Source: Anaerolineae bacterium
Lineage (GTDB): Bacteria; Chloroflexota; Anaerolineae; B4-G1
Direction: 5' to 3'
Length of the DNA stretch: 14,465 nucleotides
Assembly (NCBI GenBank): GCA_034437455.1
Contig: DAOTUB010000062.1
Location: forward strand, 1 to 14,465
Shown: piece after piece, positions 1 to 14,336 of the stretch
How positions within the stretch are numbered: position 1 is the stretch's first letter
Layout of the letters: each line of letters starts with the position of its first letter
Made by a program: the position numbers and the translations under genes
Notes under the pieces: model-generated
What the model was told of the DNA's origin: nothing
Databases searched by the model: none
What the model saw: the letters and a program-made list of their open reading frames with translations, nothing else

Positions 1-453
1 CATGTGTTATACCCGGCGTGGGCATACTTTGTGACGCTCTTGAGCAGCCCAAATGCCTACCATCGCGCTGCCGCCGTCCGTCTCATCGCAGACTTGACCC
101 GGATCGACGATGCGCAACAATTTGAGACGATCTTTGAACGCTACTTTGACTTGCTGGATGACGAGAAAGTGATGGTCGCCCGTTACCTCGCGCAGAACGC
201 CTGGAAGATCGCAGAGGCCAAGCCATATCTGCGAGAAAAGATCACAGCACGCTTGTTGGACATAGACGCCACCCATCATCCACCGAGCCGTAAAGCCCTG
301 GTCAAGGCCGACGCCATTGCGTCCTTTAAAGTGTTCTTTCAAGAATCCAAACGCAAAGAGGGCATACGCGCCTTTGTCGAAGCGCAATTGGAGAGTGAAA
401 GCCCCAAGGCCCGCCAGGCAGCCAGTGCCTTTTTGAGACGCTACGGGCAATAA
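1..453 (+). CDS. 3' end of a gene that starts upstream of the window; hypothetical protein C-terminal fragment (about 150 aa visible). Mostly helical-looking, no recognisable catalytic motif.
   Basis: Frame 1 is open from nt 1 to TAA at 451-453. The translation looks protein-like (balanced composition), whereas the overlapping minus-strand ORF 7-552 is Gly/Cys/Leu-rich junk. No start codon context is visible because the gene begins upstream. Confidence 0.5.
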   Translation, partial: HVLYPAWAYFVTLLSSPNAYHRAAAVRLIADLTRIDDAQQFETIFERYFDLLDDEKVMVARYLAQNAWKIAEAKPYLREKITARLLDIDATHHPPSRKALVKADAIASFKVFFQESKRKEGIRAFVEAQLESESPKARQAASAFLRRYGQ

Positions 454-551: not shown

Positions 552-578
552 ATCACGGTTCCGCAAGAGAACCGTGAT
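552..578 (+). terminator. Perfect 10-bp stem / 7-nt loop hairpin ATCACGGTTC-cgcaaga-GAACCGTGAT. Possibly a terminator for the upstream gene, or a cis-regulatory structure in the leader.
   Basis: Exact reverse-complement arms at 552-561 and 569-578. A TTTT run follows only after about 14 nt (gattttgat, 591-600), so the classic intrinsic-terminator geometry is imperfect. Confidence 0.3.
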
Positions 579-690
579 GGATCCATGATGTGATTTTGAT
601 GTCATATAGAGATAATGTTAACCCCAAACGGGGGTGCTATGATATACGTGCGTCTTTTATAATTTCCCGCCGCATTTTTGCCTTGCCGAT

Positions 691-3018
691 TTGAAAATGA
701 CCTTACACGAGATCTCTATTGAGCAATCACATAGCCATTACACTATCCGGCAAACGGTTTTAGCCTGCGTGGAGCAAGTTTTCCCTTTTGGGGCTTTTGT
801 TCGCTTGCCAGATGGCACCCAGGGCTATGTACGCAAGCGCGAGCTGACCCTGGCCGGCAACCAAGACCCCCGCGAGGTCGTCTCTCCCGGACAAGAAATC
901 AAAGCTGTGGTAGTCGCCTTGCCCCAGGCTGAACAAAGCCTCGAGTTGAGCGTGCGTCAGGCCGAACCCGATCCCTGGGAAACATTCGGACAGTCCCAAG
1001 TCCGTGACACTGTCACAGCCACGGTCAAAAAGCTCTACAACAGAGGCGCCCTCGTCCAAGTCACTCCCGGCGTAGACGGGTTCATCCCATTGGCCGAGTT
1101 GGCACCCTGGCCGGTGGAAAAGCCGGATGACTTGCTCTGGGTCGGTGACCGGGTAGAAGCGATGATTACTCATCTTGACCGGCAGGCCAGGCGGATGTGG
1201 CTCAGCATCCGGCAACAAGTAAAGCACACAGCACGCGTAAGAGAGGTGCTGTCGTTTCTCAGCAAAAAGGAAGATCCGGAAGAGACTTTACCCCAGGAGG
1301 AACCCGTCACCCTTGAGAAAGACCAAGGCATAGACCCAGCCATCGCCCAGCAAGTGGGACGCATTTTGGTAGTGGATGACCATGACAAAGTACGGGAACC
1401 GCTGGCGGCATGGCTGCATCGGATGGGCTTTGCGACGGAACAAGCTAAATCCCCCCACCAGGCGCTCGACTGCTGCCTTGAAAACGCTTACGGGCTGGCA
1501 TTGATTGACCTGAACCTTTCAGGCCAAGACGGACTGGAACTTGTTCAGGCCTTGAAAGACTTGAACCCGGATATCCCAATAGCCATCATGAGCACTCCCG
1601 AATGGATTGCCCAACGGTTGGAAGCGCTGTCCACACTGCGTCCGGTTCATATATTCGCCAAGCCACTAGACCTGGACGAGATCCGCGAGCTGTTGGTCCA
1701 ATTGGCTCGCGGTGAAATATTCCCTCCCACCGCTTTCACTAAGCCAGAGGTCCAAAAATCACCTGCGGCCTCCTCACACATGGCTAAAATGATGCGCAGC
1801 GACCTATCGTTAGCAAAACGTTTCCAAGCTGGCCTACAGGAACTAGTCCAGCAAGGCCAGGCAGATCAGGGCATCCTTTTTCAGCTCGCTCCCGACTCGC
1901 AGCAAATTTCTATCGTCGCGCAGGCCGGGAACATGGCATTAAACCAGGCGGCTATGTACAACCTGCGCCAAAGCCCGGTCAAAGACGTGATCTATGAGCA
2001 AGATGAGGTATTTGAGACAGACGTCTCGCGTCACGCTCAAGGTCAATTCAGCAAGCTATTAGCGCTGCTGCCCTTTGAATCCTGCCTGGGCGTCCCCATC
2101 CCGGCCGCCGGTCAGGTACAACATGCCCTGTTTCTGTTTCATCGTGAGCCAGAGATCTTTTCCCGCTATCGCTTGCGAGATGCACGCGCCATGGCCGTGC
2201 TGTTTAGCGCAGCGCTAGAAAGTCAAGCATTGGAAAAACGTATCCAGTCTGTCAGTCCATTTTTGCTGAGCGGGCAACTAGCGGCCGGCTTTGGCCACGA
2301 AGTATATAACAAGATGTCCGGGTTAGAGCTACAGATTTGCAACCTACAATCCGACTGCCAAACTGTGCAGCGAGATTTGACAGGGTGCCAACCGGTAGAC
2401 GACGGCGCCCTCGACGCACTGCTCAAAGCCACGGGCCGGTTGTTAGAATCCGCACTAGACCTCAAAGGCACCTTGCAACTTTTTCGCGAACTCGTTCAGG
2501 CTGAGCAGCAAGACCAAGTGGACGTGAACGCAGTGACACAACGCGCCATTCAACTGCTGCGTACCACCGCAGGCCAGCACCAGGTCATCATAGAAGAAAA
2601 ACTGGTTCCAGACTTGCCCCCGGTCAGAGGCAGTGCCGTCCGCCTGCAACAGGTTTTCGTCAACCTGATGCTAAACGCGATCCAACAAACCGCCCTAAAA
2701 ATGGTAAAATGGCCCGAAGGCCAGGGGGTACTGAGCATCGCGACGACTTGGGAGCCAGCGGCCGAGTGTCCCGTGCAAGTGCGGTTTATGGATAACGGGC
2801 CCGGGATACACCGCCACTTGTGGGACAAGATTTTTACCCTGGGCTTTTCGACCCGACAGGGCGGAACAGGCCTGGGTTTGTTCATCGCCAAGAGCCTGAT
2901 CGAGTCCTTGGGCGGCAAGGTCTGCGTAGAACAAAGCATGATCCCTGAGGGGAGCATTTTTCGGGTGGAACTGCCAGCGGCCAAGCATTGTCAACGAGGA
3001 GCGAGCAGCGATGCATGA
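691..3018 (+). CDS. Hybrid sensor histidine kinase with tandem N-terminal S1 RNA-binding domains: S1, S1, REC, GAF, HisKA, HATPase_c (775 aa). The ORF track starts at TTG 691; an in-frame ATG at 697 is an alternative start.
   Basis: Coordinates are aa (nt) throughout.
- S1 folds, two copies: residues about 15-92 (FGAFVRLPDGTQGYVRKRELT ... SLELSVRQ) and about 101-176 (GALVQVTPGVDGFIPLAELA ... MWLSIRQ).
- REC, aa 224-340 (nt 1360-1710): RILVVDDHD, LALIDLNLSG, IMST, FAKP.
- GAF, aa about 365-515 (nt 1783-2235).
- HisKA H-box: LAAGFGHEVYNKMSGL (His536, nt 2296-2298).
- HATPase: N box VFVNLMLNAIQQT, G1 DNGPGI, G2 GGTGLGLFIAKSL.
- A TATAAT hexamer lies at 658-663 upstream.
- No strong Shine-Dalgarno sequence before 691/697. 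Confidence 0.85.
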   Translation: MKMTLHEISIEQSHSHYTIRQTVLACVEQVFPFGAFVRLPDGTQGYVRKRELTLAGNQDPREVVSPGQEIKAVVVALPQAEQSLELSVRQAEPDPWETFGQSQVRDTVTATVKKLYNRGALVQVTPGVDGFIPLAELAPWPVEKPDDLLWVGDRVEAMITHLDRQARRMWLSIRQQVKHTARVREVLSFLSKKEDPEETLPQEEPVTLEKDQGIDPAIAQQVGRILVVDDHDKVREPLAAWLHRMGFATEQAKSPHQALDCCLENAYGLALIDLNLSGQDGLELVQALKDLNPDIPIAIMSTPEWIAQRLEALSTLRPVHIFAKPLDLDEIRELLVQLARGEIFPPTAFTKPEVQKSPAASSHMAKMMRSDLSLAKRFQAGLQELVQQGQADQGILFQLAPDSQQISIVAQAGNMALNQAAMYNLRQSPVKDVIYEQDEVFETDVSRHAQGQFSKLLALLPFESCLGVPIPAAGQVQHALFLFHREPEIFSRYRLRDARAMAVLFSAALESQALEKRIQSVSPFLLSGQLAAGFGHEVYNKMSGLELQICNLQSDCQTVQRDLTGCQPVDDGALDALLKATGRLLESALDLKGTLQLFRELVQAEQQDQVDVNAVTQRAIQLLRTTAGQHQVIIEEKLVPDLPPVRGSAVRLQQVFVNLMLNAIQQTALKMVKWPEGQGVLSIATTWEPAAECPVQVRFMDNGPGIHRHLWDKIFTLGFSTRQGGTGLGLFIAKSLIESLGGKVCVEQSMIPEGSIFRVELPAAKHCQRGASSDA
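733..1218 (+). other. Tandem S1 (OB-fold) RNA-binding domain region of the 691-3018 kinase.
   Basis: Two roughly 75-aa repeats matching the S1 pattern G-x-V-x-G-x-V ... GAFV ... G-x-V-(H/R) ... S-E-L ... G-x-x-(I/V)-x-(V/A)-x-V-(L/I) ... (L/I)-S-(V/I)-R-Q. Seen in translation only; no HMM was run. Confidence 0.7.
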
Positions 3019-6000
3019 AGAACCGCTAAGGGTAGTACTGATAGACGACGAGCAAAGCCTGCGCGAGCCGTTAGCCAAGCGCCTACGAGACAAGTACAAC
3101 TATCACGTCGATGCTGCCGCCGATGCCCGTCAAGCCTGGCAGTTGATTACCGAGGCCAGTTCACCTTACGATGTGGCTCTAATCGACGATATGTTGACAC
3201 CTCAGGCCCAAGTTGAACCCCAACTGATTGGCATCGACCTTACACGCCGGATCAGAGAAGACCATCCCGAGACAGAATGCATCCTCTTCACCGGGTGGGG
3301 TATGGAGCGGGCGCTAGAGGGACTACGCGCCGGCGCGTACCGCTACCTGTCCAAGCCGATCAACATGGAAGAACTAGGCATGACCATCCGTATGGCAGCG
3401 GAGCATCGCCGGCTCAAACAGCAACTGGAAACCACCCGCCAGGAGAAAAAATGGCTACAGACGTTCCTGGAAATCGGTCGGGCAACGACTTCTGTCCTGG
3501 AATTGGATGAGGTTTTGGAACATGTCCATGCACAAATCAGTCTCCTTATGGATGCTTCTTGTATGGACGTCGTCCTATATGACAGTGCCAATCAAACGCT
3601 CAAGTTCGAGTTGGGCTATGACAAAGGGGTCAAGGAGACGAGATGGGAGCGCCCATTCACCGCAGACCATGGATTGACCGATTTGGTGATTCAACATCGT
3701 CACCCGCTGCTGATCAGAGATTATAAAAAAGAAACCCCTCCCGTTCTCGCCTATCAGCGTGGCGAAATGAGCCGTTCGTGGCTGGGCGTCCCCCTGATCG
3801 CGCGCGACCAGGTCATCGGGGCCATCACGGTGCAAAGCTATACACCGCACAAATTCGACGAGACGGATCAGCAAATCCTGGATACGGTGGCCAACCACAT
3901 AGCCAGCGCCATCCAAAACGCTCAATTATTCTCTGAACTGGTCAAGACCCAAAAGTGGCGCGAAGCGCTCATCAACAACACCCTAGATGCGGTGATCGCT
4001 ATTGACCAGGGCAAACGAGTGACGGTCTTTAACCAGCGCGCTGAACAGATGTTTGGCTGGCATGCGCGAGAAATCATAGGGCAGCCGGTCACCCAATTAC
4101 ATATGAGTACGGGAAAGGCCAAAGAGATCTTTGACACGGTAAACCATGAAGGAGAGATCTCGAGTCTGGAAGTAGAACTAAGACATCGGGACGGTACCGC
4201 TATCCCGGCGCGGCTTTCAGCAACGCGGATCAAAGACAGCAACGGTCATCCCATCGGGCAAGCGCGGTTTATGCGTGATTTACGCCAGGTCAACCTGTTG
4301 GAAGAACGGCTGCGGGCTTTGATCCGAGGAAATCGGGTCATTAACAGCAGTCTGGAATTAGAGCAAGTACTCAACCAGGTCATCCAAGCTGCACTAGAAG
4401 CTTTCCCGATGGCACAAGGGGGTGTTATTCACCTGTATGATAAACACAGCAGTGTATTGCGCCTCCAAGCAAATACTTTCAGTTACAGCCCTTCAGCCAT
4501 CGAGGCGTTGCACATGAAGCCCGGTGAAGGCATTGCCGGTTGGGTCTATATGCGCGGACAGCCCGTGGTGATCCCAGATGCACACCAGGATGAGCGTTAC
4601 AAGCTGATCGCCCATCCGGAAATCGCTCCCCACAAACCTATGGTGTGCGTACCCCTCAAAGTGAGAGATCAAGTACTTGGAACACTATCGCTCAACACAG
4701 TAGAGACCGGCAACACCTTTCAAGCCGAGGACCTGGGATTACTTTCCACATTTGCCGATCAGGCGGCTGTCGCCATCAACAACGCCCGCTTTTTTAGGGA
4801 ACAGGACCGCCGCCAGCAACTCTTGACCAGGCTGAACGAAGCGTCACGGCACATCCGTGCGGAAAAACCAATCCCCAAGCTCTTGCACGAAATCGTTCGC
4901 CAGGCGGTCCGGTTGGTCGACTGTTCGGCAGGCGCGCTGTTCCTCAACCGCCCCCACGTCAAGGAACTAGAATTACAAGTGACCTATGAACTACCCACCG
5001 AATTGGTTGGCAGTCATCTATCGCACACCGAAGGCTTGGTCGGTTTAGTTGCACGAACTGGCAAGTCCAAATTCATACGCAATTACTCAACATGGTCAAG
5101 ACCCACAGTGCTCTTTGAACCCTATAACTTTGAAAGCGTCGCTGGAATCCCTCTCAAACAAGCCGGCGAGGTACAAGCGGTCTTGCTCGTCGCTGACCAG
5201 ACCGGCACTCCGGCGCATCTGCAGCCGTCCGACCTGGAGATACTGGAGCGCCTGGCGGCACAGGCCGCTATCGAACTCGAGACCTCTCTATTGATGAGCC
5301 GAGAACAACGCGTGGCCAGTCAATTAGGTATCCTGCACCAAATCAGCGATTACATACAAGCAGCCAGAGACCTGGACAAAGTGTTGCACGTCGTCCTGAC
5401 GGGCGTGACGGCGGGTTATGGTCTGGGCTTTAATCGTGCGGCGCTGTTGCTGCTAGATGAGCGCCAGGAACACCTGGTGGGACGCATGGGCATCGGCCAA
5501 CTGGAGGAACCAGCAGCGCAACAAGACTGGGAGCAACACCACAAGCACAAATTAGAGGATTTTCAAAGATACCTCGAACTGTTGGAAAAGGACGCCCTGC
5601 CGTTGACGCCGGTGGGAGAGAAAATCCGCGACATCAGGCTGCCCCTCACGCCTCACGTCTGTGGCATCCTCATGCGGGTGATGCGCCAGCAACAGCACCT
5701 ACTCCTGACTCTAGAGGAATTAAACGAACTACCAGGCAGCTTTGTCAAGGTTTTCGACCCGGCACAGCCAATCATCGTTGCGCCCCTGCTGGCGCGCGGA
5801 GCGGTCATCGGACTGCTCATCGCCGATAACAAGTTCACTGCGTCGCCCATCACGCCGGAGGACACAGAGGCACTGCTGACCTTTGCCAACACGGCCGCGA
5901 TCGCCATCAGCAACGCACAACTTTACCACGAAACTCGGGTCGCACGAGAGCGGTTGCGCAGCTTTTACGAGGCCAGCAACGCCCTGGTCTCGTCCCAGGA

Positions 6001-9000
6001 TCCCGAACAAGTGCTCCGAAAAATCGTCGAACAAGCTCACCAGACGGCCAGCTCGGCCTGGACCGGCCTGATCTTGATCGACAAGGCTGGACAGGCACAA
6101 AAACTGGTCACGATGGGAATAGACGAGTACGGCGGATTTACCGTTCGGCCCGACGGGATCTCGATGCAGGCTATGTGCAGCGACCAAGCCCAAATCATCG
6201 AGGATGTCCGGGCAGAACGCGACCGCGTCAACCCAGGTTTGCTGCGCGACGGCATTGGCGCCGCTTTGTGTTTGCCCCTCTCCCTGCAAGAAAACCACTT
6301 TGGTGTGATGTGGCTGCACTATGCCATGCCGCGCCATTTCCCCATCAGTGAGGTTGAAGCCTTGCAGCTCTACGTCAATCAGGCGGCCATCGCTTACGAT
6401 GCTGCCCGACGTATGCAGCAGCTAGAAAACATGCGACGAGCGGCCGAGGCACTGGCTGGCGCTTCTAGCATAGCGGCAGTGCTCAAGCAAATAGCCGAAA
6501 GCGCCAGGATTGTCCTGAATGCCGACTCGTCCGTCGTCTGGCCGTACGATCACGAGAGACGCACCTTTTTGCCCGCCGAGCTAGAGACGGCCGGCATTTC
6601 ACCCGAGCTAGTCGAACAATTTCGAGATGTCGAACCTCAACCAGAAGGTACAACGGAAACAGTTTTGCATTTAGGGTGGATTGGCGTCTCGGACGTCGAC
6701 CAGGAGGTGCACCCCTTCCTGGGTCCCCCTGACAGAGGCTTGCGTGGGGCGATCACCGTCCAATCCTTCCAAGGGATCGCTTTACGGGCGGGCGACGAAA
6801 TTCTGGGCGTGCTGTACGCAGACTATGAAAGGCCGCGTAGCTTTAATAAAGCGGACCGCCGGCTGGCTGAAACCTTTGCCACTCACGCTTCCCTGGCCCT
6901 CAAGAAAGCCAGACTGCTGGACCAAATCAGCCAAGTGAGAGACACAGCCAAAGCCGTGGCCGAAGTCAGCATCCTGGAGAAACTAGCAAGTACGCTAGAC
7001 TCGATTACGCGGGGGACTTGCAAAACGCTCAACTGCGATGCCGTCACCCTCTACACTTTTGATCAGCGCAAAGACCAAATCGGGTTTCCCCCAACGGTGA
7101 TAGGGATACGAGACACGAAACAAGTCCTCGAGTTAGGCTTTGTGGCAAGGAACTCGGTTGTCGGCAAAATACTAGACTTGGGTCAAGTGCATGTGGCCGA
7201 AGACGCTCCTTCCGATCCCATCATGGGCGGGGTGTTTGTCAAACGTGAGGGTATCAAATCATCGCTCGGCGTCCCACTCCAGGTCGGCGACCAAAAAGTA
7301 GGGGTGATGTTTGTGAACTATCGCACCCCGCACCGTTTTACCGGTGAAGAACTGACCAACATCAAGCTCTTTGCGACCCAGGCTGCCATCGCCATCCGCA
7401 ACGCTCGGCTCATAGACGATATTTTCCACCGCAACATTCAGCTCCAGACCGTCACCGAGGTCTCCAAGTCAACCAGCACCCTTCTCGCCCCCGAAGCATT
7501 GATGCACCAGGCAGTCAACCTGATTCGAGAGCGCTTTGAACTCTACTATGTGGGTCTATTTTTAACCGATGAAAGCAGCAAGCATGCAGTATTGCGAGCC
7601 GGCACCGGTGACGCGGGTCAAAGAATGCTCACAGATGGCTACAAGCTAGAGATCGATGATCACTCGATGATTGGATGGAGCATCAACAACGCCCAACCAC
7701 GTATCGCGCTCGACATCGACAAAGAAAAAATCCGCTTCAACAACCCTCACCTGCCCGAGACTCACTCCGAGCTGGCGCTGCCGCTGATCAGCCGTGGTCG
7801 CTGCATCGGTGCCCTGACGGTGCAAAGCACCAGGCCAGATGCCTTTTCCTCTGAAGACGTCGCCGTGCTGCAAACGATGGCCGATCAATTGGCCATCGCC
7901 ATCGAGAACGCTCAGCTATATCGAGAAGAAACAGAACAGCTCCAGGAATCCCAGGCCCTGCAAAAAATAGCGATCTCTCTCGCCGGTAGCCTTGAGCTTG
8001 GTGAAGTGTTGAACCACGTGATGCAGGCAGCGATGGGCTTTACCGAAACAGATTCTGGCACCATCTTGTTGTGGAACGCAGAACAAGAAAATTTCACCTA
8101 CACACTCACCACAACGGGGCCAGAACGAACCCTACAGGTATATACCAGCCAAACCCGCGAGGAAGGCATAGCCCGGTCAATCATTGAGGAGCAAAAGACG
8201 GTCATCATTTCCAACGCCCAGGATGACCCCCGGATCAATCCCATTGCGATTGAAAAAGGCCGACGAGCGCTCATCGGCACTCCACTGGTGAGCCGCGAAG
8301 AAGTAATCGGCGTACTCTATGTAAGCAGCTTGGAACCCCGCCAGTTCCTTGCACAACAAGTGAGCTTGTTAAAAAGCCTGGCTAGCCAGGCTGCAGTGGC
8401 CATTGAAAGAGCGCGACAACACAAAGAGTTAAAAGAAACCAAAAGCGTCATCGGTGCCAGGACAGCACTGGCATGGATGGGGATGACCAGTAGCGCCTGG
8501 CGTCACACCATCGAAAAGCATTCCCTGACCATACGGGAGCAAGCACAACTCCTGCGCCAAGACTGGGAAAAAGTGATGCCGCATTCTCAAAAGCTCAAAG
8601 CCCAGGACCGCATCGCGATGATTGAGCGATTGACGACGCAAATCCTGCAAAAACCGATCACACCACCCCTTTCCAGCGAATCCGGTGTTCAGTTGGTATC
8701 GCTGACCACGCTGGTCAGCGAGCGTGCTAGACAATTATGGCAAAATGACCCCTACAAAAAGACCAAGCTCCAACTGGACTTGCAACTACCGGAGGAAGCG
8801 GCGGTCCGCACTAGCCCTGAATGGTTGCGACGGGCTTTTGATATCTTGGTGGACAATGCGGTGAATGCCGTTACAGACTGTCCTGTGCGCGAGATTACTA
8901 TCGGCACCAAAGCTTACAGCTCGGGAGTCAAGGTTTTCGTGTCGGACACTGGACCGGGCATCCCAGACGAGATGCAAGACAAAATCGGCCTTGAGGCGAT

Positions 9001-9172
9001 AGAGAAACCCAAAGATGCCAAAGGGCTCGGTATGGGGCTACTAATGGCCCACGTTATTGTACAAACTTATGGGGGGAAAATTTGGCTTGATTGCACCGGA
9101 CCCGAGGGCACGACCATGTCCATCTGGCTCCCCTTGGAAGCCCGACCCTCAGAGGGAGAGCAGACCTCATGA
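3011..9172 (+). CDS. Giant multi-sensor hybrid histidine kinase (2053 aa): N-terminal REC, GAF1, PAS, GAF2 through GAF9, divergent HisKA, HATPase_c. ATG 3011 overlaps the upstream stop (TGA 3016-3018) by 8 nt; SD GAGGAG at 2996-3001.
   Basis: - REC: VVLIDDEQ, VALIDDML, ILFTGW, LSKP.
- PAS: TLDAVIAIDQGKRVTVFNQRAEQMFGWHAREIIGQP at about nt 3950-4290.
- Nine GAF-like units, each closing with the helix motif (F/L)A-x-QAA(I/V)AI-x-NA(R/Q)L(Y/F/I). The nine closing motifs are:
  1. ANHIASAIQNAQLF
  2. ADQAAVAINNARFF
  3. AAQAAIELETSLL
  4. ANTAAIAISNAQLY
  5. NQAAIAYDAARR
  6. ATHASLALKKARLL
  7. ATQAAIAIRNARLI
  8. ADQLAIAIENAQLY
  9. ASQAAVAIERARQ
- Divergent H-box: LAWMGMTSSAWRHTIEKH, which aligns to LAxxGxxAxxxAHEIxNPL.
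- HATPase: N box FDILVDNAVNAV, G1 DTGPGI, G2 KGLGMGLLMAH. Confidence 0.9.
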   Translation: MHEEPLRVVLIDDEQSLREPLAKRLRDKYNYHVDAAADARQAWQLITEASSPYDVALIDDMLTPQAQVEPQLIGIDLTRRIREDHPETECILFTGWGMERALEGLRAGAYRYLSKPINMEELGMTIRMAAEHRRLKQQLETTRQEKKWLQTFLEIGRATTSVLELDEVLEHVHAQISLLMDASCMDVVLYDSANQTLKFELGYDKGVKETRWERPFTADHGLTDLVIQHRHPLLIRDYKKETPPVLAYQRGEMSRSWLGVPLIARDQVIGAITVQSYTPHKFDETDQQILDTVANHIASAIQNAQLFSELVKTQKWREALINNTLDAVIAIDQGKRVTVFNQRAEQMFGWHAREIIGQPVTQLHMSTGKAKEIFDTVNHEGEISSLEVELRHRDGTAIPARLSATRIKDSNGHPIGQARFMRDLRQVNLLEERLRALIRGNRVINSSLELEQVLNQVIQAALEAFPMAQGGVIHLYDKHSSVLRLQANTFSYSPSAIEALHMKPGEGIAGWVYMRGQPVVIPDAHQDERYKLIAHPEIAPHKPMVCVPLKVRDQVLGTLSLNTVETGNTFQAEDLGLLSTFADQAAVAINNARFFREQDRRQQLLTRLNEASRHIRAEKPIPKLLHEIVRQAVRLVDCSAGALFLNRPHVKELELQVTYELPTELVGSHLSHTEGLVGLVARTGKSKFIRNYSTWSRPTVLFEPYNFESVAGIPLKQAGEVQAVLLVADQTGTPAHLQPSDLEILERLAAQAAIELETSLLMSREQRVASQLGILHQISDYIQAARDLDKVLHVVLTGVTAGYGLGFNRAALLLLDERQEHLVGRMGIGQLEEPAAQQDWEQHHKHKLEDFQRYLELLEKDALPLTPVGEKIRDIRLPLTPHVCGILMRVMRQQQHLLLTLEELNELPGSFVKVFDPAQPIIVAPLLARGAVIGLLIADNKFTASPITPEDTEALLTFANTAAIAISNAQLYHETRVARERLRSFYEASNALVSSQDPEQVLRKIVEQAHQTASSAWTGLILIDKAGQAQKLVTMGIDEYGGFTVRPDGISMQAMCSDQAQIIEDVRAERDRVNPGLLRDGIGAALCLPLSLQENHFGVMWLHYAMPRHFPISEVEALQLYVNQAAIAYDAARRMQQLENMRRAAEALAGASSIAAVLKQIAESARIVLNADSSVVWPYDHERRTFLPAELETAGISPELVEQFRDVEPQPEGTTETVLHLGWIGVSDVDQEVHPFLGPPDRGLRGAITVQSFQGIALRAGDEILGVLYADYERPRSFNKADRRLAETFATHASLALKKARLLDQISQVRDTAKAVAEVSILEKLASTLDSITRGTCKTLNCDAVTLYTFDQRKDQIGFPPTVIGIRDTKQVLELGFVARNSVVGKILDLGQVHVAEDAPSDPIMGGVFVKREGIKSSLGVPLQVGDQKVGVMFVNYRTPHRFTGEELTNIKLFATQAAIAIRNARLIDDIFHRNIQLQTVTEVSKSTSTLLAPEALMHQAVNLIRERFELYYVGLFLTDESSKHAVLRAGTGDAGQRMLTDGYKLEIDDHSMIGWSINNAQPRIALDIDKEKIRFNNPHLPETHSELALPLISRGRCIGALTVQSTRPDAFSSEDVAVLQTMADQLAIAIENAQLYREETEQLQESQALQKIAISLAGSLELGEVLNHVMQAAMGFTETDSGTILLWNAEQENFTYTLTTTGPERTLQVYTSQTREEGIARSIIEEQKTVIISNAQDDPRINPIAIEKGRRALIGTPLVSREEVIGVLYVSSLEPRQFLAQQVSLLKSLASQAAVAIERARQHKELKETKSVIGARTALAWMGMTSSAWRHTIEKHSLTIREQAQLLRQDWEKVMPHSQKLKAQDRIAMIERLTTQILQKPITPPLSSESGVQLVSLTTLVSERARQLWQNDPYKKTKLQLDLQLPEEAAVRTSPEWLRRAFDILVDNAVNAVTDCPVREITIGTKAYSSGVKVFVSDTGPGIPDEMQDKIGLEAIEKPKDAKGLGMGLLMAHVIVQTYGGKIWLDCTGPEGTTMSIWLPLEARPSEGEQTS

Positions 9173-9558
9173 AGCACTTCTTATTGGTCGGTAACCCATC
9201 AGGCTCGCAGTGGTCCTCGATCTTGCGTCGGGCACTGTCTACTTTGGGTGAGCTGCGCATCGCGTCTGAAGCAAACGCCCCACGGGAAATCTCGAGAAAA
9301 AATTACGATGCGATCATTGTAGACGCCGGCGCCGTTCAAGACGTTAACGCTCTGACATCTCTTCTGCGTCAAGACCACCCTCAGGCACGCGTGATCGTTG
9401 CCACCGCGTCTCCCACCTGGAGACGCGCGCGCGAGGCACTCCGTGCCGGCGCCGCCGACTATATCCGCAAATCGCTGGATGAAAAAGAACTCCTGGTCGC
9501 TATCCAGGAAGCGTTATTAGTTCCCCTTCCTGCCTTATCCGAGTCGAAACGGAGGTAA
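9169..9558 (+). CDS. Stand-alone receiver-like protein (129 aa from ATG 9169); atypical or pseudo-receiver. The ATG overlaps the stop of the giant kinase (ATGA at 9169-9172); GGGAGAG lies 12-18 nt upstream. The ORF track's earlier start (9091) would overlap the kinase by 82 nt and seems less likely.
   Basis: CheY-like layout. The conserved acidic pair is replaced in LLVGNPS (DD to GN). The putative phospho-Asp is kept in AIIVDAG, a T/S position in VATAS, and a Lys in IRKS. Seen directly in translation. Confidence 0.6.
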   Translation: MKHFLLVGNPSGSQWSSILRRALSTLGELRIASEANAPREISRKNYDAIIVDAGAVQDVNALTSLLRQDHPQARVIVATASPTWRRAREALRAGAADYIRKSLDEKELLVAIQEALLVPLPALSESKRR

Positions 9559-9560
9559 AT

Positions 9561-11528
9561 ATGGCCCAGTTCACTGTGCTCTTTGTTGATAACGATCAAG
9601 ATTTTCTCAATACCCGCACCGAATTTCTAGAAAATGCCGGGTATCGCGTGATCAAAGCCGCCAGTCTTGATCAGGCCCGAAAGTTCCTAAGTGACGCCCT
9701 GGTCCATCTGGCCATCCTGGATATCCGTATAGTCGACGACGATGATGAAAAGGACATCAGCGGCCTGGTTCTGGCCAAAGAGCCGGCCTACAGCCTCATC
9801 CCCAAAATTATCCTCACGAATTTTCCGAGCTATCAAGATGTGCGGGAGGTTCTAAAACCTGCCTTACAGGGCCTCCCTCCTGCCGTGGACTTTTTATCCA
9901 AAAAGGACGGCCCGACAATCATGATTCAGGCCGTCCACGAGGCCTTTGACAAATATGTACGCCTCAATCAGGACTTGCGCATTGACTGGGGCCCACGGGA
10001 GTCTCTGAATCCTCTCCATCTGGCGCGCCTGCTAAACCCTGACGCGTCTAACGAGGTTTTGGTACAACGCGCCGATGAACTAGAGGACCTCCTGCGCCGC
10101 GTATTCTGTGATTATCAACAGGTCAGAATTGGCCGGTTGCTGTGGCATATCGAACAGCGCCTCTGCGTACCGGTCTTGGCGCAATCTACCCAGCAAGCGA
10201 CCGACGCCCGGATCCTGGTGTGCGGAGAACGGGGACCTATGGAGCAAGAACTGGCGTGTATGCAAGAGCTGGTACCAGAACGCGGGGCAACGTTGGTCAA
10301 CACGACCGATACCGTGCATTTCTGTGCAGCAATCTATGCCCTGGCCGACGCCCAGTTGGAAAGCATACAAACCTTGAGAGAGTTGTTTCAAAGCGGCAAG
10401 AAACGCCCTCTCACAACCGCCCTGGATCGCCTGTTAAAAGACACGCTGGCAGACTGGCACCAACGCGGACAAGCTCTGCAGGAATCGGGCCACTTGATCG
10501 AAGTTTATCGCCGCTGGGCAGAGCTGGACCAGGACGGTACGTCTCGGTCAAAGGTCAAGCGCCACGTAGAGAAACTGGTCCAGATATCCCGCGCGTTAAG
10601 CGCAGTGGAAATTCAAAGCCTTGACCAAGGCATCACATTTCAGTTCCCTCAACAAGCACCGTTGAACTATCCTGACCCCGTGGCTATCCTGTACACCCCA
10701 TTGGAATCCTATTCCGGGCCAATCGTGTGTCGCGTCTCGCCCGGCCGCCTGACGCCTGACAACGTGCTCATAGATGCCCAGCAACGGACCTGGCTAACCG
10801 ACCTGGCTCGCGCCGGACAGGCCCCCCAATGGTGGGATTTCGTGTGCCTGGAGGCGCTGTTTCGCTTTGATCTCAGTCAGGCCCCAGACCTGCTGGCCTG
10901 GCAAGAGTTCGAAGAATGCTTGATTTGCCCTAACGTGCTGCACGATAATCTACGGGAACAGGACGTGGTGCAAGATCTGCGCATGAGCGTGACGCTCATT
11001 GAGCAAATCCGCAGACAAGCCGGCAGTGAAGCCGGACCCGACCCCCGACCTTACTATGCAGGCCTGCTGGCATGGGTCGTCGGCGCCATCGCCCAACACG
11101 ATCCAAGCAGGCTGTATACGCCGGCCGAGCAAATGCGCAACGCACACCTCTTGATGGCCGCCGCTATGCTCGCGAACCGGTTAAGCGAGTCAACAGCCAA
11201 AGTGAACCCTGGTGGGTCGCTGCGCTTGGATGCAGAAGGCACTGTCTGGATGGGAGAACGCCGGGTCGATGAACTGGGAGGACAAGAGCTTGATTTGTTG
11301 CGCCTGCTCTATGAACAACCGGGACAACTCGTCAAGCGCGAGCGCATCATCGAATCTGTATTCGGCGAACCTTATGCCGAGGGCGACAAACACCAGGCAG
11401 GCCGCATTAACTCCCTGATAAGACGTCTGCGCGTCAAGATTGAACCCAATTCCCGCCGTCCGCGCTACCTACTGACCGTCAAGGGCAAAGGTTATCGCTT
11501 GCAGGTAAAGAACAAACCTCAAGAGTAG
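9561..11528 (+). CDS. 655-aa response regulator: N-terminal REC, then a central protein-kinase-like (Hanks/APH-type) domain that is probably a pseudokinase, then a C-terminal OmpR/PhoB-type winged-helix DNA-binding domain. SD GGAGG 7 nt upstream of ATG 9561.
   Basis: - REC: LFVDNDQD, LAILDIR, IILTNF, VLKP.
- Kinase-like catalytic loop: SPGRLTPDNVLID, aa 394-405 (nt about 10740-10775). It aligns to HRDLKPENILID / HGDLHPGNVLV with the catalytic D replaced by R.
- DFG-like motif: WLTDLARAG, aa 411-419.
- APE-like plus DxWSxG-like region: APQWWDFVCLEA.
- wHTH: LLRLLYEQPGQLVKRERIIESVFG ... RINSLIRRLRVKIE ... YLLTVKGKGYRL. Confidence 0.85.
   Translation: MAQFTVLFVDNDQDFLNTRTEFLENAGYRVIKAASLDQARKFLSDALVHLAILDIRIVDDDDEKDISGLVLAKEPAYSLIPKIILTNFPSYQDVREVLKPALQGLPPAVDFLSKKDGPTIMIQAVHEAFDKYVRLNQDLRIDWGPRESLNPLHLARLLNPDASNEVLVQRADELEDLLRRVFCDYQQVRIGRLLWHIEQRLCVPVLAQSTQQATDARILVCGERGPMEQELACMQELVPERGATLVNTTDTVHFCAAIYALADAQLESIQTLRELFQSGKKRPLTTALDRLLKDTLADWHQRGQALQESGHLIEVYRRWAELDQDGTSRSKVKRHVEKLVQISRALSAVEIQSLDQGITFQFPQQAPLNYPDPVAILYTPLESYSGPIVCRVSPGRLTPDNVLIDAQQRTWLTDLARAGQAPQWWDFVCLEALFRFDLSQAPDLLAWQEFEECLICPNVLHDNLREQDVVQDLRMSVTLIEQIRRQAGSEAGPDPRPYYAGLLAWVVGAIAQHDPSRLYTPAEQMRNAHLLMAAAMLANRLSESTAKVNPGGSLRLDAEGTVWMGERRVDELGGQELDLLRLLYEQPGQLVKRERIIESVFGEPYAEGDKHQAGRINSLIRRLRVKIEPNSRRPRYLLTVKGKGYRLQVKNKPQE
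10100..11130 (+). other. Kinase-like (probable pseudokinase) insert domain of the 9561-11528 regulator.
   Basis: Approximate span inferred from the positions of the catalytic-loop and DFG-like motifs. The N-lobe assignment is tentative because no clear Gly-rich loop or VAIK lysine is seen. Confidence 0.45.
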
Positions 11529-11616: not shown

Positions 11617-11658
11617 TTGCAAGGTAACTCCAATCCGGACATCATATTGTCCGGATTG
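11617..11658 (+). promoter_or_regulatory. Putative promoter/operator for the SPFH-like operon. A -35-like TTGCAA (11617-11622) is followed by a perfect 11-bp inverted repeat CAATCCGGACA-tcatat-TGTCCGGATTG (11631-11658). The repeat's AT-rich loop (TCATAT) is the best -10 candidate.
   Basis: The inverted repeat is an exact reverse complement (read directly). The promoter hexamers are weak matches and the spacer is 18-19 bp, so the promoter call is tentative. A palindrome centred on a -10 element is a classic repressor-operator geometry. Confidence 0.4.
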
Positions 11659-11791: not shown

Positions 11792-13111
11792 ATGGAAAGT
11801 TACCAAGACGGACATGCGGAACAAGCGAAAGCGCGTCCCATAAAGTATTGGCCGCCCGATGGTTCCAAATTCAATGGCCTGGTAGGTCCTGCTAAACAAA
11901 TGCGGATCCTGCCCCTGGTCCCCAAACTCCACATCGTCCCAGCAGGCACGTGCGCCGTCCTTACATTGCCCGGAGGGAAGCGCACAATCTTTCAAGAAGG
12001 TATGCACGTGCTCAAGGATCTCCCCGCAGGCGTATGCTTGCTGCGCTACGTCGATATGCGGGAACATCGCACCCCCATATCACTCACCGAGGCCTGGTGT
12101 AAAGATGGGTGGCGCGGCAAGCTTGCGCTACAGATTCACTGGCGCGTCAATGACGCGGCACACCTCGTGGATGTCGCCGACCCTGTCGGGAACCTCACCA
12201 CCGCCGCCAAGGCGAGTGTGCGCGCTGTCATCGAGACGACGCCCCACGACAAGCTGATCGGTGGGAGCGACGAGCAAGCCATAGCGACCGATTCCCTGGC
12301 GGCGGCCGTGACCGCTAAACTGCAAGACAATCCGGCCACCAAGGGTATCAAAATCCTGCGCGTCCTGATCACCGAACGCCAAGGTGACACACGCTGCATC
12401 GAGATCGCGCAAGAAAAAACGGTCGAGCACAAGCGGCAGGAACTGGTCTTGCTGCAGGAGGAAACGGAGCGCAAGCGCAAAGAAGAGGAAAGAAAAGTGC
12501 GCATCCGGGAAGCAGAGATCGAGGCCGAAACGGAAGGCCGGCTCGCTGCTATCAAGTGGCAGCAAGTGCAGTTAGAACAGGCAGCGGAACTGAACAAACA
12601 ACATCACGAACGGGCGCTAAAAATCATCGAGGCCTACGCTCAGGTGCTGAGCAAGGCAGCAGAACTCGGACAACTGGAGGCACTCGGTGTCTCCTCGCGT
12701 CGCCGGCCCGAACTCGCCACCGGTGGCTTGGAGAGTATGCTGAACCAAGGGCTGAGCAACTTGCAAAGTGCGCTTCAGGCGCCAACCATCAGCCCGCTTC
12801 CCACGTATGCCAGCTCTTACAATGAAAAAGCCGCCCTGGCCGCGCGCCTCGCGGCCGAGGCTGCCGAGGTGGCCGAACTGGAAGGGGTCAAGCAGTGCTA
12901 CGTAGGCGTGTGCAAGAAAGAAAAGGGTAACACGGTTTTCGTCTGGCTGGATGGCCGACGGTTGAGCATCTGCTGCCCCTTGGACTACCCTCAAACCGCT
13001 CCCAAAGTGCAATGGGCTGACAACGGCCACCACAAAGTGCCGCTCAATTGGTCTGAAGGGATGTCGCTCTCGCACATCGTAGCGGACATCCGGGCAACCG
13101 CCCAAGCCTGA
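11792..13111 (+). CDS. SPFH/band-7 (stomatin/flotillin-like) domain protein, 439 aa. No N-terminal transmembrane helix. Followed by a long ER/K-rich charged helix and a Cys-containing C-terminal tail. SD GAGAGGAG 8-15 nt upstream of the ATG.
   Basis: - The N-terminal 45 aa are hydrophilic.
- SPFH core: HIVPAGTCAVLTLPGGKRTIFQEGMHVL ... LRYVDMREHRTPIS ... CKDGW matches IVPxGxxGVVxxFGK ... PGLHF ... VDLRE ... TKDN.
- Band-7 signature-like ATKGIKILRVLITE.
- Charged helix: QEKTVEHKRQELVLLQEETERKRKEEERKVRIREAEIEAETE.
- Tail: CYVGVCKKEKGNTVFVWLDGRRLSICCPLDYP. Confidence 0.75.
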   Translation: MESYQDGHAEQAKARPIKYWPPDGSKFNGLVGPAKQMRILPLVPKLHIVPAGTCAVLTLPGGKRTIFQEGMHVLKDLPAGVCLLRYVDMREHRTPISLTEAWCKDGWRGKLALQIHWRVNDAAHLVDVADPVGNLTTAAKASVRAVIETTPHDKLIGGSDEQAIATDSLAAAVTAKLQDNPATKGIKILRVLITERQGDTRCIEIAQEKTVEHKRQELVLLQEETERKRKEEERKVRIREAEIEAETEGRLAAIKWQQVQLEQAAELNKQHHERALKIIEAYAQVLSKAAELGQLEALGVSSRRRPELATGGLESMLNQGLSNLQSALQAPTISPLPTYASSYNEKAALAARLAAEAAEVAELEGVKQCYVGVCKKEKGNTVFVWLDGRRLSICCPLDYPQTAPKVQWADNGHHKVPLNWSEGMSLSHIVADIRATAQA

Positions 13112-13139
13112 AAACACTGACTCTATGACGAGGTGATAA

Positions 13140-14336
13140 ATGCAAGAGACACCTTTCATACATACGGCCTACCGTCAAGAGACTCTAGTCGAGTCCGGCT
13201 TGTTCAATCACCTAGGAGTAGCCCACGAGCAGTTGCCCGGCTATCACGCCTTGTTTGCTGCTCGGGTCCTGGTGACGCCCTATGAAATCTTGGCCGAAAG
13301 AAAGTGGGGCATGGTAGAAAGAGATCTGCTAGACGAGGTTCTGGACAGACAGAGGCGCTTTATCGCCAGCCTACACTACATAGATCCTCATTCCACCAGC
13401 CCTGACCCTAGCCTCAAGACGGCAGCGCTGCGCTATGTCGCTCGACCGGAGACGCGGCAAATAGACACGATACTGGTGGGCAAAGTCTTTGCCCACCAGA
13501 TCGACCAGGCTCGTGATATGGCTCTCGCCTGGTACAAGGAAATCGAAGCACTGTTTTCCCGTGACTACAAGCTGCAACCGCTCAAGTCAGAAGAGGAATT
13601 CATAACCCAATCGGGGCAACAACTGCTCAAAAGCATCTCTGAGCCCACACAGACAGAAGTCAGACGCTACGAGATGTTCTTGCCCAGGTCGACCGAACGA
13701 GAAGTAAGGGAAACCCACTATGTCGTGTATCCTTTTATGTGGCATCGAAACGGCATGGATCAAGTATGGCAAGTTATGGCGTCAATGTCAGCACCTGTCA
13801 TACTCAGCGTTATGCTGCGTCCGGCTTATTTGTACGAAGCGGAAGAGCTGCATTTGGCGCGATTTTACGAGGCCACAAAAAATCTCAAGTCCGAACGCGT
13901 CGCCGACCACGTGCTAGGGGAACAAGCCGCGCAGATATACGCCGGATACCTCCGGACCTGGCGCCAACCTTTCCTGGTGCGCGCGCAGGTCACCGCACCG
14001 CAAGGGACCCACCGCGCGCTGGCACGCGCGGTGGGATGTGCACTGTCATACGGCGCGCCGGCCAGTGGCGATGACAGACATAGCCCGTTCCCTGGTTACG
14101 AGTTGATCACACCCACCAAAGAGGACCGCAAGACCGCACGCGACAATGTATGCTGGCTCGAGATGCAAGACTGGGGGACTGACCAAGCTGCACCAGCCTA
14201 TCGTAGGTTTCGATACCTGACCGACTTGAAAGGCGCCCATTGCTTGTTTCGTCTCCCGTTCGTGCCCAAGGCCGGCTTGCCTGGCGCACAATTTGACAAA
14301 TCGTCAACGCCGGACGCAGACTCGAACAATCGATAG
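13140..14336 (+). CDS. Hypothetical protein, 398 aa, no recognisable domain; apparently soluble. Starts 28 nt after the SPFH-like gene's stop with SD GAGG 6 nt upstream, so it is probably co-transcribed.
   Basis: Long ORF with protein-like composition, tightly linked on the same strand. I see no catalytic or structural motif I can name, and no hydrophobic transmembrane segment. Confidence 0.55.
   Translation: MQETPFIHTAYRQETLVESGLFNHLGVAHEQLPGYHALFAARVLVTPYEILAERKWGMVERDLLDEVLDRQRRFIASLHYIDPHSTSPDPSLKTAALRYVARPETRQIDTILVGKVFAHQIDQARDMALAWYKEIEALFSRDYKLQPLKSEEEFITQSGQQLLKSISEPTQTEVRRYEMFLPRSTEREVRETHYVVYPFMWHRNGMDQVWQVMASMSAPVILSVMLRPAYLYEAEELHLARFYEATKNLKSERVADHVLGEQAAQIYAGYLRTWRQPFLVRAQVTAPQGTHRALARAVGCALSYGAPASGDDRHSPFPGYELITPTKEDRKTARDNVCWLEMQDWGTDQAAPAYRRFRYLTDLKGAHCLFRLPFVPKAGLPGAQFDKSSTPDADSNNR

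Follow-up and report, generated by a model that had tools for sequence, protein, structure and literature searches.

The window analyzed here is the whole 14,465-nt stretch of contig DAOTUB010000062.1 from an Anaerolineae bacterium. An open reading frame on its forward strand (nt 691–3018) runs in one frame without interruption and encodes a hybrid histidine kinase, referred to below as S1-kinase. From the N- to the C-terminus, the protein comprises two S1 domains (S1-1 and S1-2), a helix, an acidic disordered linker, a receiver (REC) domain, a GAF domain, a DHp hairpin, and a HATPase_c domain. ATG 697 is a likelier start codon than TTG 691 because a database protein of 773 aa (P0001), which is 100% identical, begins at this ATG. 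S1-kinase is a soluble bacterial signaling protein, and its gene heads a conserved cluster (Table 1). Residue conservation was determined in 119 homologs of S1-kinase, which show little or no variation in the catalytic motifs of the kinase and in the phospho-acceptor pocket of REC. The AF2 model of S1-kinase has a pTM of 0.46, at which the inter-domain arrangement is unreliable and too low in confidence for contacts to be read.

Table 1. Features of the S1-kinase gene and of the genes downstream of it in the window
Feature	Position (nt)	Strand	Residues or length	Basis or remark
S1-S1-REC-GAF-DHp-CA hybrid histidine kinase gene (S1-kinase)	697–3018	+	773 aa	
S1 domain 1 (S1-1)	748–960	+	aa 18–88	Pfam S1/S1_RRP5, alignment to E. 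coli bS1 D4/D5, AF2
S1 domain 2 (S1-2)	1003–1215	+	aa 103–173	Pfam S1 (best stretch 104–172), alignment to bS1 D3/D5/D6, AF2
Post-S1 helix and acidic disordered linker	1216–1347	+	aa 174–192 (helix), aa 193–217 (linker)	
Receiver (REC) domain	1354–1710	+	aa 220–338	Pfam Response_reg
GAF domain	1771–2250	+	aa 359–518	Pfam GAF_2, profile vs PDB
DHp dimerization/phosphotransfer hairpin	2257–2505	+	aa 521–603	AF2 helices, H534 census, Foldseek
Catalytic ATP-binding (CA) domain (HATPase_c)	2512–2982	+	aa 606–762	Pfam
REC-PAS-(GAF x8–9)-HATPase kinase	3011–9172	+	2053 aa	Start overlaps S1-kinase stop by 8 nt
Single-domain REC protein	9169–9558	+	129 aa	DD pair replaced by GN, acceptor Asp present
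REC-TCAD9-winged-helix (Trans_reg_C) regulator	9561–11528	+	655 aa	
SPFH/Band-7 protein (11792–13111) and 398-aa protein (13140–14336)	11792–14336	+		

The fusion of S1 domains to a kinase is a confirmed observation. A preliminary description of the locus had considered a frameshift at nt 1220–1360, but this region is in frame, and the helix and acidic linker that it encodes are present in every homolog. An artifact that attached part of rpsA to an unrelated kinase, through either chimeric assembly or a frameshift, has nothing in its favor and can be regarded as practically negligible: the reading frame is continuous, an independent Logan assembly encodes an identical protein, and more than 200 orthologs in independent MAGs share the full-length architecture at 25%–77% identity. 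Mis-assembly is thus refuted by the homologs together with the independent assembly.

Relatives of S1-kinase were found in at least 234 species-representative genomes from several phyla, mainly Chloroflexota and some Acidobacteriota, all of them MAGs. Two homolog searches and a genome scan for a cultured host returned named sources that were all MAGs or metagenomes. The S1 pair is present in 76 of the 80 genome loci kept. The public databases contain hundreds of proteins with the identical domain order, which were named automatically (e.g., "S1 RNA-binding domain-containing protein"). The pairing of S1 domains with a kinase had been described as unusual. This holds for the literature, as no paper on a fusion of S1 domains with a histidine kinase was found in its searchable part; the pairing is, however, not a one-off. 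S1-kinase represents a variant of two-component kinases for which we found no study of the design in the searchable literature and no curated family. A UniProt-wide survey of S1-domain proteins from 2024 does not mention kinases.

Both repeats at the N-terminus are genuine S1 domains, as originally proposed, on which Pfam, the PDB sequence matches to bS1, and the modeled fold agree. The Pfam S1 profile (PF00575) matched S1-kinase in two stretches (about aa 19–86 and 104–172) with an E-value of 8e-22 and 77.9 bits against a cutoff of 22, and NCBIfam rpsA models aligned with aa 10–187. The top PDB sequence matches of the S1 pair were residues 367–536 (D5-D6) and 281–396 (D4-D5) of E. coli bS1, and these matches include the inter-domain DPW motif and the bS1-type Trp. 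Both domains have the five-stranded OB β-barrel fold in the AF2 model and in Foldseek comparisons. The strands span residues 20–29, 32–36, 42–46, 67–74, and 82–85 in S1-1 (barrel 20–85) and residues 105–114, 117–123, 126–131, 152–161, and 166–170 in S1-2, with a pLDDT of about 90 in both domains. In Foldseek, the modeled tandem superposes on D3-D4 of Vibrio vulnificus bS1 (7a05; 161 columns, rmsd 4.0) and also on bS1 of the 30S mRNA-delivery complexes 9gut and 9guv. E. coli bS1 D1-D2 aligned with the S1 pair at insignificant scores only.

S1-kinase is not the ribosomal protein bS1 itself, because it contains two S1 domains only and its scores against the rpsA equivalog models are far below the cutoffs (TIGR00717, 101 bits vs 577; PRK06676, 108 bits vs 368). 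The S1 pair resembles bS1 D3-D6 (E 4e-34) in the inter-domain DPW motif, the bS1-type Trp after β3, and the helix that corresponds to the bS1 tail. In contrast to bS1, S1-kinase has no ribosome-binding D1-D2, its S1 domains number only two and are fused to a kinase, and Arg (S1-1) or Pro (S1-2) takes the place of the canonical His.

Canonical S1 domains contact RNA through two aromatic residues in β2, a His in β3, and Asp and Arg in β5, which correspond to F19, F22, H34, D64, and R68 in PNPase. S1-1 retains the aromatic pair F31/F34 and has Arg46 at the canonical His position. Among the 119 homologs, F or Y occupies position 31 in 117, F34 is found in 118, R46 in 117, and R48 in all. The Y-[IV]-R-[RK]-R-E motif of this domain is nearly invariant, and Arg is common at position 80. 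According to the alignment, the same His-to-Arg change occurs in E. coli bS1 D6. In S1-2, the first aromatic residue is variable, F119 is found in most members, and the His position (131) is Pro in 109 of the 119 homologs; Asp161 and Arg166 are present, and there is essentially no variation at Trp138 (the bS1-type Trp) and Trp148. The two S1 domains have a roughly neutral charge. They are conserved as strongly as the catalytic domain, with pairwise identities of 0.555 and 0.56 (catalytic domain 0.573, REC 0.465). The homology to bS1 suggests that the S1 pair may bind single-stranded RNA.

The S1 pair is followed by a helix (residues 171–192 in the AF2 model) that aligns with the tail beyond D6 in E. 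coli bS1. The linker between this module and REC appears to be a flexible, poorly conserved tether, as the pLDDT is <50 for aa 193–210. In the family, the linker is 22–37 aa long and contains 30% D/E and 4% K/R, with a net charge of –6.8 and a pairwise identity of 0.15.

The REC domain was matched by Pfam Response_reg at aa 223–332 (E 6e-18, 65.5 bits vs cutoff 30.2). Its pocket is intact (D227/D228, D271, S299, and K322): D or E at position 227 occurs in 118 of the 119 homologs, D228 in 116, D271 in 115, S299 in 114, and K322 in all. The Pfam GAF_2 match at aa 371–508 (E 7.7e-6, 26.6 bits) lies slightly below the cutoff of 28.6. Despite this score, the region of aa 359–518 was confirmed as a GAF domain: most homologs of S1-kinase have a precomputed GAF match, the family profile of this region matched the GAF domains of the PDB entries 6ozb (E 7.9e-8) and 3ci6 (E 3.2e-6), and the AF2 model shows a GAF-like α/β fold at residues 356–518. 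Cys463 and His482 in this domain are near-invariant among the 119 homologs. A cyanobacteriochrome or phytochrome GAF was rejected, since the bilin-binding Cys is absent (the 6ozb segment DSCHVEYL aligns to rrFkkLL of the family), and the domain is therefore not a photoreceptor.

The fusion of the S1 pair with REC, GAF, HisKA, and HATPase domains, as first described, is real and conserved, except that the Pfam HisKA profile (PF00512) and the other models of the HisKA family had no match in S1-kinase at E≤1. A DHp hairpin is nevertheless present, although its sequence is divergent. It consists of two helices in the AF2 model (residues 521–561 and 569–603) and contains the H-box His534 (FGHEVYNK; nt 2296–2298), and Foldseek superposes the modeled DHp-CA part on ZraS, HK853, and CckA. 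HATPase_c was matched at aa 647–762 (E 3.9e-18), and its N, G1, F, and G2 boxes are invariant. Ten residues of the DHp and catalytic domains are found in 119/119 homologs (H534, N538, N656, N660, D699, G701, G703, F713, G725, and G727). With its catalytic and acceptor residues intact, S1-kinase is predicted to have both an active kinase and an active receiver.

The core of S1-kinase corresponds to that of a dual-sensor kinase (6oap/6oaq/6ob8), with the same REC-GAF-DHp-CA order and with N-terminal REC and GAF domains before the kinase. Foldseek aligned the two cores (6oap/6oaq) with an E-value of about 1e-13, and the GAF profile touched 6oap weakly. This dual-sensor kinase integrates phosphorylation and light as two inputs. 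It differs from S1-kinase, whose GAF domain has no bilin-binding Cys and which contains the S1-S1 module in addition.

In 64 of 67 orthologous loci, the gene that follows the S1-kinase gene encodes a giant REC-(GAF)n kinase, and in the remaining 3 loci this gene is split or partial. The giant kinase is thus an obligate partner of S1-kinase, and this operon partnership is fixed. The two kinases did not arise by recent duplication, as their CA domains are only 27% identical and their DHp regions do not align. Homologs of the single-domain REC protein were found downstream in 19 of 49 loci (phmmer), and those of the REC-TCAD9-winged-helix regulator in 32 of 49. The TCAD9 match in this regulator reached 38.6 bits (cutoff 40). 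The regulator is likely the DNA-binding output of the cluster. The SPFH/Band-7 protein and the 398-aa protein, in which no known domain was found, are sometimes linked to the cluster. This pair lies downstream of it in the window and in one other locus (L005), and directly upstream of S1-kinase in nine loci (L060–62, L065, L068–71, and L075); in L058, only the 398-aa homolog is found upstream. The TCAD9 and CyanoTRADDas_TM domains of the neighboring genes are known from the "conflict system" literature, and two papers of the Aravind group do not describe the cluster. The six cluster proteins had no match among the PADLOC anti-phage defense models at E≤0.001. Rfam returned nothing at E≤1 in the window and nothing at the gathering score in six orthologous loci. 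A leader shared upstream of 73 loci was not found, only promoter-like TATAAT boxes near the start.

The known signals of two-component kinases comprise small molecules and light, the redox and membrane states, and phosphorylation. To our knowledge, there is no characterized case of an RNA-binding domain within the sensor kinase itself, and none was found in the searchable literature. The explanation that we favor, tentatively and with a probability of roughly 0.45, is that the S1 pair serves as an RNA tether that would make phosphotransfer in the relay depend on RNA state. S1-kinase would then be a hybrid kinase with a catalytically competent core in the "dual-sensor" order, whose activity would be controlled by a GAF ligand as well as by phosphorylation at Asp271 in the N-terminal receiver of the same protein. 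A tandem S1 module, presumably derived from the RNA-binding C-terminal part of bS1 and joined to this core by the flexible acidic linker, would bind single-stranded RNA and tether the kinase. Such tethering could couple phosphotransfer in the operon-encoded relay to the state of RNA in the cytoplasm; clustering of kinases on one RNA and competition between RNA and the acidic linker may contribute. The giant REC-(GAF)n kinase, the single-domain REC protein, and the REC-TCAD9-winged-helix transcription factor would form the rest of the relay. In this scheme, the domain identities, the intact catalytic and acceptor residues, the strongly conserved S1 pair, and the fixed operon partnership are observations, whereas we infer that RNA is bound, which way the signal flows, and how the two kinases and several receivers are wired. 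The absence of two canonical RNA-contact positions from S1-2 and the neutral charge of both S1 domains count against S1 tethering, and so does the absence of a conserved leader or a known RNA family near the operon that could be the ligand.

The S1 pair had been proposed to be a signaling input, which is one reading only; a tether or an RNA-binding output controlled by phosphorylation fits the acidic linker equally well. Moreover, the S1 "input" may be mere localization, because classical allosteric signals are poorly conducted to DHp by a disordered linker. The N-terminal S1-S1-REC part is equally readable as an RNA-binding output similar to a response regulator. As a complete explanation, such an output, in which phosphorylation of Asp271 would switch RNA binding by a response-regulator module fused to its own kinase, appears rather unlikely. 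The phosphate would come from the fused kinase or from the neighboring giant kinase, and the response would be post-transcriptional besides the transcriptional output of the cluster. The adjacency of REC, with its complete acceptor pocket, to the S1 module argues for this output, as do the two conventional inputs that GAF and REC already provide, as in dual-sensor kinases. The acidic linker could also mimic nucleic acid and be displaced or engaged upon phosphorylation. RNA-binding receiver outputs are an established principle in ANTAR regulators (AmiR, EutV, NasR-like), which likewise link two-component phosphorylation to RNA binding. However, ANTAR regulators are not kinases and their helical domain is C-terminal to REC, and Pfam found no ANTAR domain in S1-kinase. 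Response regulators nearly always carry their output domain on the C-terminal side of REC, whereas the S1 pair is on the N-terminal side. Furthermore, a representative search with aa 1–215 for other architectures with the S1 pair returned family members mixed with multi-S1 proteins, and no stand-alone S1-S1-REC protein was found; the short (~340-aa) matches all end mid-domain and are truncated fragments. A conserved RNA target is also not evident in or near the operon. Still less probable is a loss of RNA binding, after which the S1 domains would act as a protein–protein adaptor (e.g., to the ribosome, the degradosome, or another protein of the operon) or have ssDNA or a different polyanion as their ligand. 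The missing canonical His and first aromatic residue of S1-2 are consistent with such an adaptor, as are the S1 domains not being basic overall and the role of bS1 domains 1-2, which mediate protein contacts rather than RNA binding. However, the closest relatives of the S1 pair are the RNA-binding D3-D6 of bS1 rather than D1-D2, S1-1 retains both the aromatic pair and, on the equivalent strand, an invariant cluster of Arg residues, and its His-to-Arg change is shared with E. coli bS1 D6.

If the S1 pair binds RNA, S1-kinase would act either as a sensor that connects RNA directly to a phosphorelay or as a post-transcriptional effector embedded in a kinase, and in both cases its wiring principle would be new to bacterial signaling. 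This principle is readily testable because S1-kinase is soluble and modular. The family gains importance from its occurrence in at least 234 species-level genomes of several phyla, from how strongly its S1 pair is constrained, and from a fixed multi-kinase operon whose output is a DNA-binding regulator. Among kinases that might read RNA or act upon it, S1-kinase is a good candidate. A bolder and rather doubtful extension of the tether is an RNA-activated histidine kinase that would be a functional analog of PKR. Its S1 domains would capture single-stranded RNA that is exposed, for example in foreign transcripts or in those free of ribosomes, and RNA-dependent clustering or release of linker autoinhibition would switch the two-kinase phosphorelay to the winged-helix factor. 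If true, this would link gene expression in the cell directly to the status of RNA or translation. The likeness to PKR would be one of analogy only, in the tandem N-terminal RNA-binding domains, the flexible linker, and a kinase whose activity would depend on assembly driven by RNA. The two proteins are not homologous and differ in the RNA-binding fold (dsRBM in PKR vs S1/OB), in the kinase (Ser/Thr vs GHKL histidine kinase), and in the RNA (dsRNA vs typically ssRNA). A regulatory rather than ribosomal role of an S1 domain is also found in CvfD/Ygs/GSP13. These proteins differ from S1-kinase in that they are single-domain proteins of about 110–130 aa without signaling domains, and their NCBIfam subfamily model matched S1-kinase with an E-value of 9.3e-16 and 58 bits, below the cutoff of 117.

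The S1-kinase, a 773-residue protein with the domain order S1-S1-REC-GAF-DHp-CA, is encoded by a single ORF without interruption. We take the ATG at position 697 as its start; the identical 773-residue database protein P0001 begins there. The Pfam search matched PF00575 twice at the N-terminus, and it also matched a receiver and an HATPase_c domain, in agreement with the preliminary description of two S1 domains fused to a kinase. The GAF_2 score was slightly under the cutoff, yet the GAF domain named in that description was confirmed by a precomputed GAF hit in most homologues, by the match of the family's GAF-region profile to solved GAF domains (6ozb, E 7.9e-8; 3ci6, E 3.2e-6), and by the GAF-like fold of this region in the model. 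The HisKA assignment held in part: the HisKA Pfam model gave no match in S1-kinase, but a DHp hairpin with an H-box is clearly present. AF2 predicts two long helices, the H-box FGHEVYNK contains His534, and the DHp-CA part superposes on ZraS, HK853, and CckA (Foldseek). Since a hydrophobic segment is absent, S1-kinase is cytoplasmic.

Features of the window and of S1-kinase (nt, window position; aa, S1-kinase residue; identity, mean pairwise identity)
Feature	Position	Strand	Description	Identity
HEAT-repeat protein gene, 3' end	nt 4-453	+	cut by left contig edge	
Hairpin, 10 bp	nt 552-578		ATCACGGTTC…GAACCGTGAT	
S1-kinase ORF	nt 691-3018	+		
S1-1	aa ~19-86		S1 pair: Pfam E 8e-22, 77.9 bits (cutoff 22)	0.555
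S1-2	aa ~104-172		as S1-1	0.56
REC	aa 223-332		receiver, Pfam E 6e-18	0.465
GAF	aa 371-508		GAF_2, 26.6 bits (cutoff 28.6)	0.559
GAF Cys463	nt 2083-2085		FESC[IL]GVP, 117/119 members	
GAF His482	nt 2140-2142		ALFLFH, 117/119 members	
DHp	aa 521-561, 569-603		long helices (AF2)	0.462
CA	aa 647-762		HATPase_c, Pfam E 3.9e-18	0.573
Giant kinase	nt 3011-9172	+	2053 aa; REC, PAS, 8-9 GAF domains	
Single-domain REC	nt 9169-9558	+	behind giant kinase	
REC-TCAD9-winged-helix regulator	nt 9561-11528	+	655 aa	
Hairpin, 11 bp	nt 11631-11658		CAATCCGGACA…TGTCCGGATTG	
SPFH/Band-7 protein and 398-aa protein	nt 11792-14336	+	398-aa protein without Pfam match	

The S1-kinase family is real and conserved, and an artefact is excluded. 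The identical protein is encoded in the independent Logan assembly ERR1878617, and the junction region, where a frameshift had been considered, is in frame, with a linker that is a conserved feature. Other proteins with the S1-plus-kinase architecture, which the preliminary description proposed to look for, are numerous: the homologue search gave at least 120 full-length proteins that share the Pfam set of S1-kinase at 45-77% identity, a second search seeded with a Herpetosiphon-MAG member listed 120 more, and relatives occurred in 234 genomes when one genome per species was scanned. Nearly all of the 80 loci kept come from Chloroflexota MAGs (Anaerolineae, Caldilineae, Ardenticatenales, Chloroflexia, Thermoflexales, and Dehalococcoidales), with a few binned as Acidobacteriota, Planctomycetota, Nitrospinota, or Bacteroidota; none of the named sources of homologues and relatives was a cultured isolate. 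The S1 pair was detected by phmmer in 76 of these loci, and even the most divergent members (~25% identity) have N-termini that are S1-like by eye. One Anaerolineae MAG (CAZVCJ01) carries two paralogous whole clusters on separate contigs (L009 and L012). The only names given to the protein in the sources are 'S1 RNA-binding domain-containing protein' and 'signal transduction histidine kinase/predicted RNA-binding protein with RPS1 domain'. Neither the literature searched nor a 2024 UniProt-wide S1 survey contained such fusions, and NCBIfam and Pfam hold no curated family for the architecture. The component domains are all ordinary; what is new is their combination, its wide conservation, and the fixed operon.

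The S1 pair is derived from ribosomal protein S1 (bS1). Its top sequence matches among solved structures were tandem domains of E. coli bS1, namely residues 367-536 (D5-D6; E 1.6e-15 for the stretch) and 281-396 (D4-D5), while D1-D2 aligned with insignificant scores only. The alignments share an inter-domain DPW motif, the Trp after beta3 typical of bS1 domains, and a helix behind the last S1 domain. The modelled tandem superposes as one unit on D3-D4 of V. vulnificus bS1 as solved by NMR (7a05; 161 columns, rmsd 4.0), and also on bS1 of the 30S mRNA-delivery complexes 9gut and 9guv. NCBIfam rpsA models cover residues 10-187 with scores far under their cutoffs, and therefore S1-kinase itself is not a ribosomal S1.

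Mean pairwise identity of the S1 pair is close to that of the CA domain, so the constraint on the pair equals that on the catalytic domain. Among 119 family members, S1-1 keeps both aromatics (F/Y31 and F34), and its canonical-His site is a near-invariant Y-[IV]-R-[RK]-R-E motif (R46 in 117, R48 in all); the same His-to-Arg change occurs in E. coli bS1 D6. S1-2 is more derived, with Pro at the His position in 109 members and a variable first aromatic; its two Trp residues, W138 and W148, are essentially invariant. The kinase residues H534, N538, N656, N660, D699, G701, G703, F713, G725, and G727 are invariant, and the receiver pocket is intact (D228 in 116 members, D271 in 115, S299 in 114, and K322 in 119). 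The near-invariant GAF residues Cys463 and His482 do not correspond to the bilin-binding Cys-His of cyanobacteriochromes, and the bilin Cys is absent from this domain; the two residues are a hint of another cofactor, or of a redox or metal ligand.

Behind S1-2, AF2 predicts a helix (residues 171-192) followed by a disordered segment (193-210, pLDDT <50). Across the family, this linker has 22-37 residues, 30% Asp/Glu and 4% Lys/Arg, a mean net charge of -6.8, and a pairwise identity of 0.15. A tether this flexible and acidic speaks against a signal passed rigidly, helix to helix, from the S1 pair to the kinase; it agrees with a role in tethering or localising the kinase, and would also suit an autoinhibitory nucleic-acid mimic. 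The REC-GAF-DHp-CA core has the layout of the solved 'dual-sensor' kinases 6oap and 6oaq, proteins that integrate receiver phosphorylation and a GAF signal.

Our favoured, though tentative, reading, to which we assign a probability of about 45%, has the S1 pair binding single-stranded RNA and making the REC- and GAF-gated kinase sensitive to the cytoplasmic RNA state. The putative RNA capture by the bS1-derived pair would affect the kinase via tethering, clustering, or relief of the acidic linker, and the kinase output would pass to the operon receivers and on to the winged-helix regulator. The 'signalling input' of the preliminary description is one of several readings. The main rival inverts the direction: S1-S1-REC would be an RNA-binding output under phosphorylation control, embedded in a kinase, which we regard as rather unlikely. 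That the pair was turned into an adaptor for a protein or another polyanion is quite improbable.

S1-kinase opens a conserved cluster. Because the upstream genes differ among loci, the unit starts with S1-kinase, and the HEAT-repeat gene is unrelated to the cluster. No conserved leader was found upstream of S1-kinase, and no PADLOC match for the cluster; searches of the window and of six orthologous loci gave no known RNA family. Of the 67 loci that extend far enough downstream, 64 have the giant REC-PAS/GAF-array kinase as the next gene, and the remaining three have it split or partial; in the window, an 8-nt overlap joins its start to the S1-kinase stop. The pre-ATPase region of the giant kinase is atypical (…AWRHTIEKH…), without recognisable HisKA. 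Since orthologue ORFs range from ~880 to ~2760 aa (stop to stop), the GAF array seems to grow and shrink from one species to another. A recent duplication giving rise to both kinases was rejected, as the CA domains are 27% identical and the DHp regions do not align.

The ATG of the single-domain REC (MKHFLLVGNPS) overlaps the giant kinase stop (ATGA). Its usual N-terminal acidic pair is replaced with Gly-Asn, with the acceptor Asp (IIVDAG) and Lys kept; by these residues, it may be atypical or weakly phosphorylatable. Regulator homologues occur downstream of S1-kinase in 32 of 49 loci, and many other loci have a REC-CyanoTRADDas_TM protein before the regulator (e.g., L002 17665-18501 and L003 16843-17652). 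TCAD9, defined in NTP-dependent 'conflict systems', is flanked here by a receiver and an OmpR-type DNA-binding domain, within an ordinary-looking two-component cluster. The SPFH/Band-7 protein contains a long coiled coil, and its Cys-rich C-terminal domain lacks a Pfam match. Together with the 398-aa protein, it accompanies the kinase cluster, downstream in the window and L005, and directly upstream of S1-kinase in a divergent subgroup (L060-62, L065, L068-71, and L075); upstream of S1-kinase in L058 there is the 398-aa homologue alone. The two perfect hairpins sit in the intergenic regions flanking the kinase operon, with no T-run behind either; they may serve as regulatory sites or as terminators that lack a U-tract.
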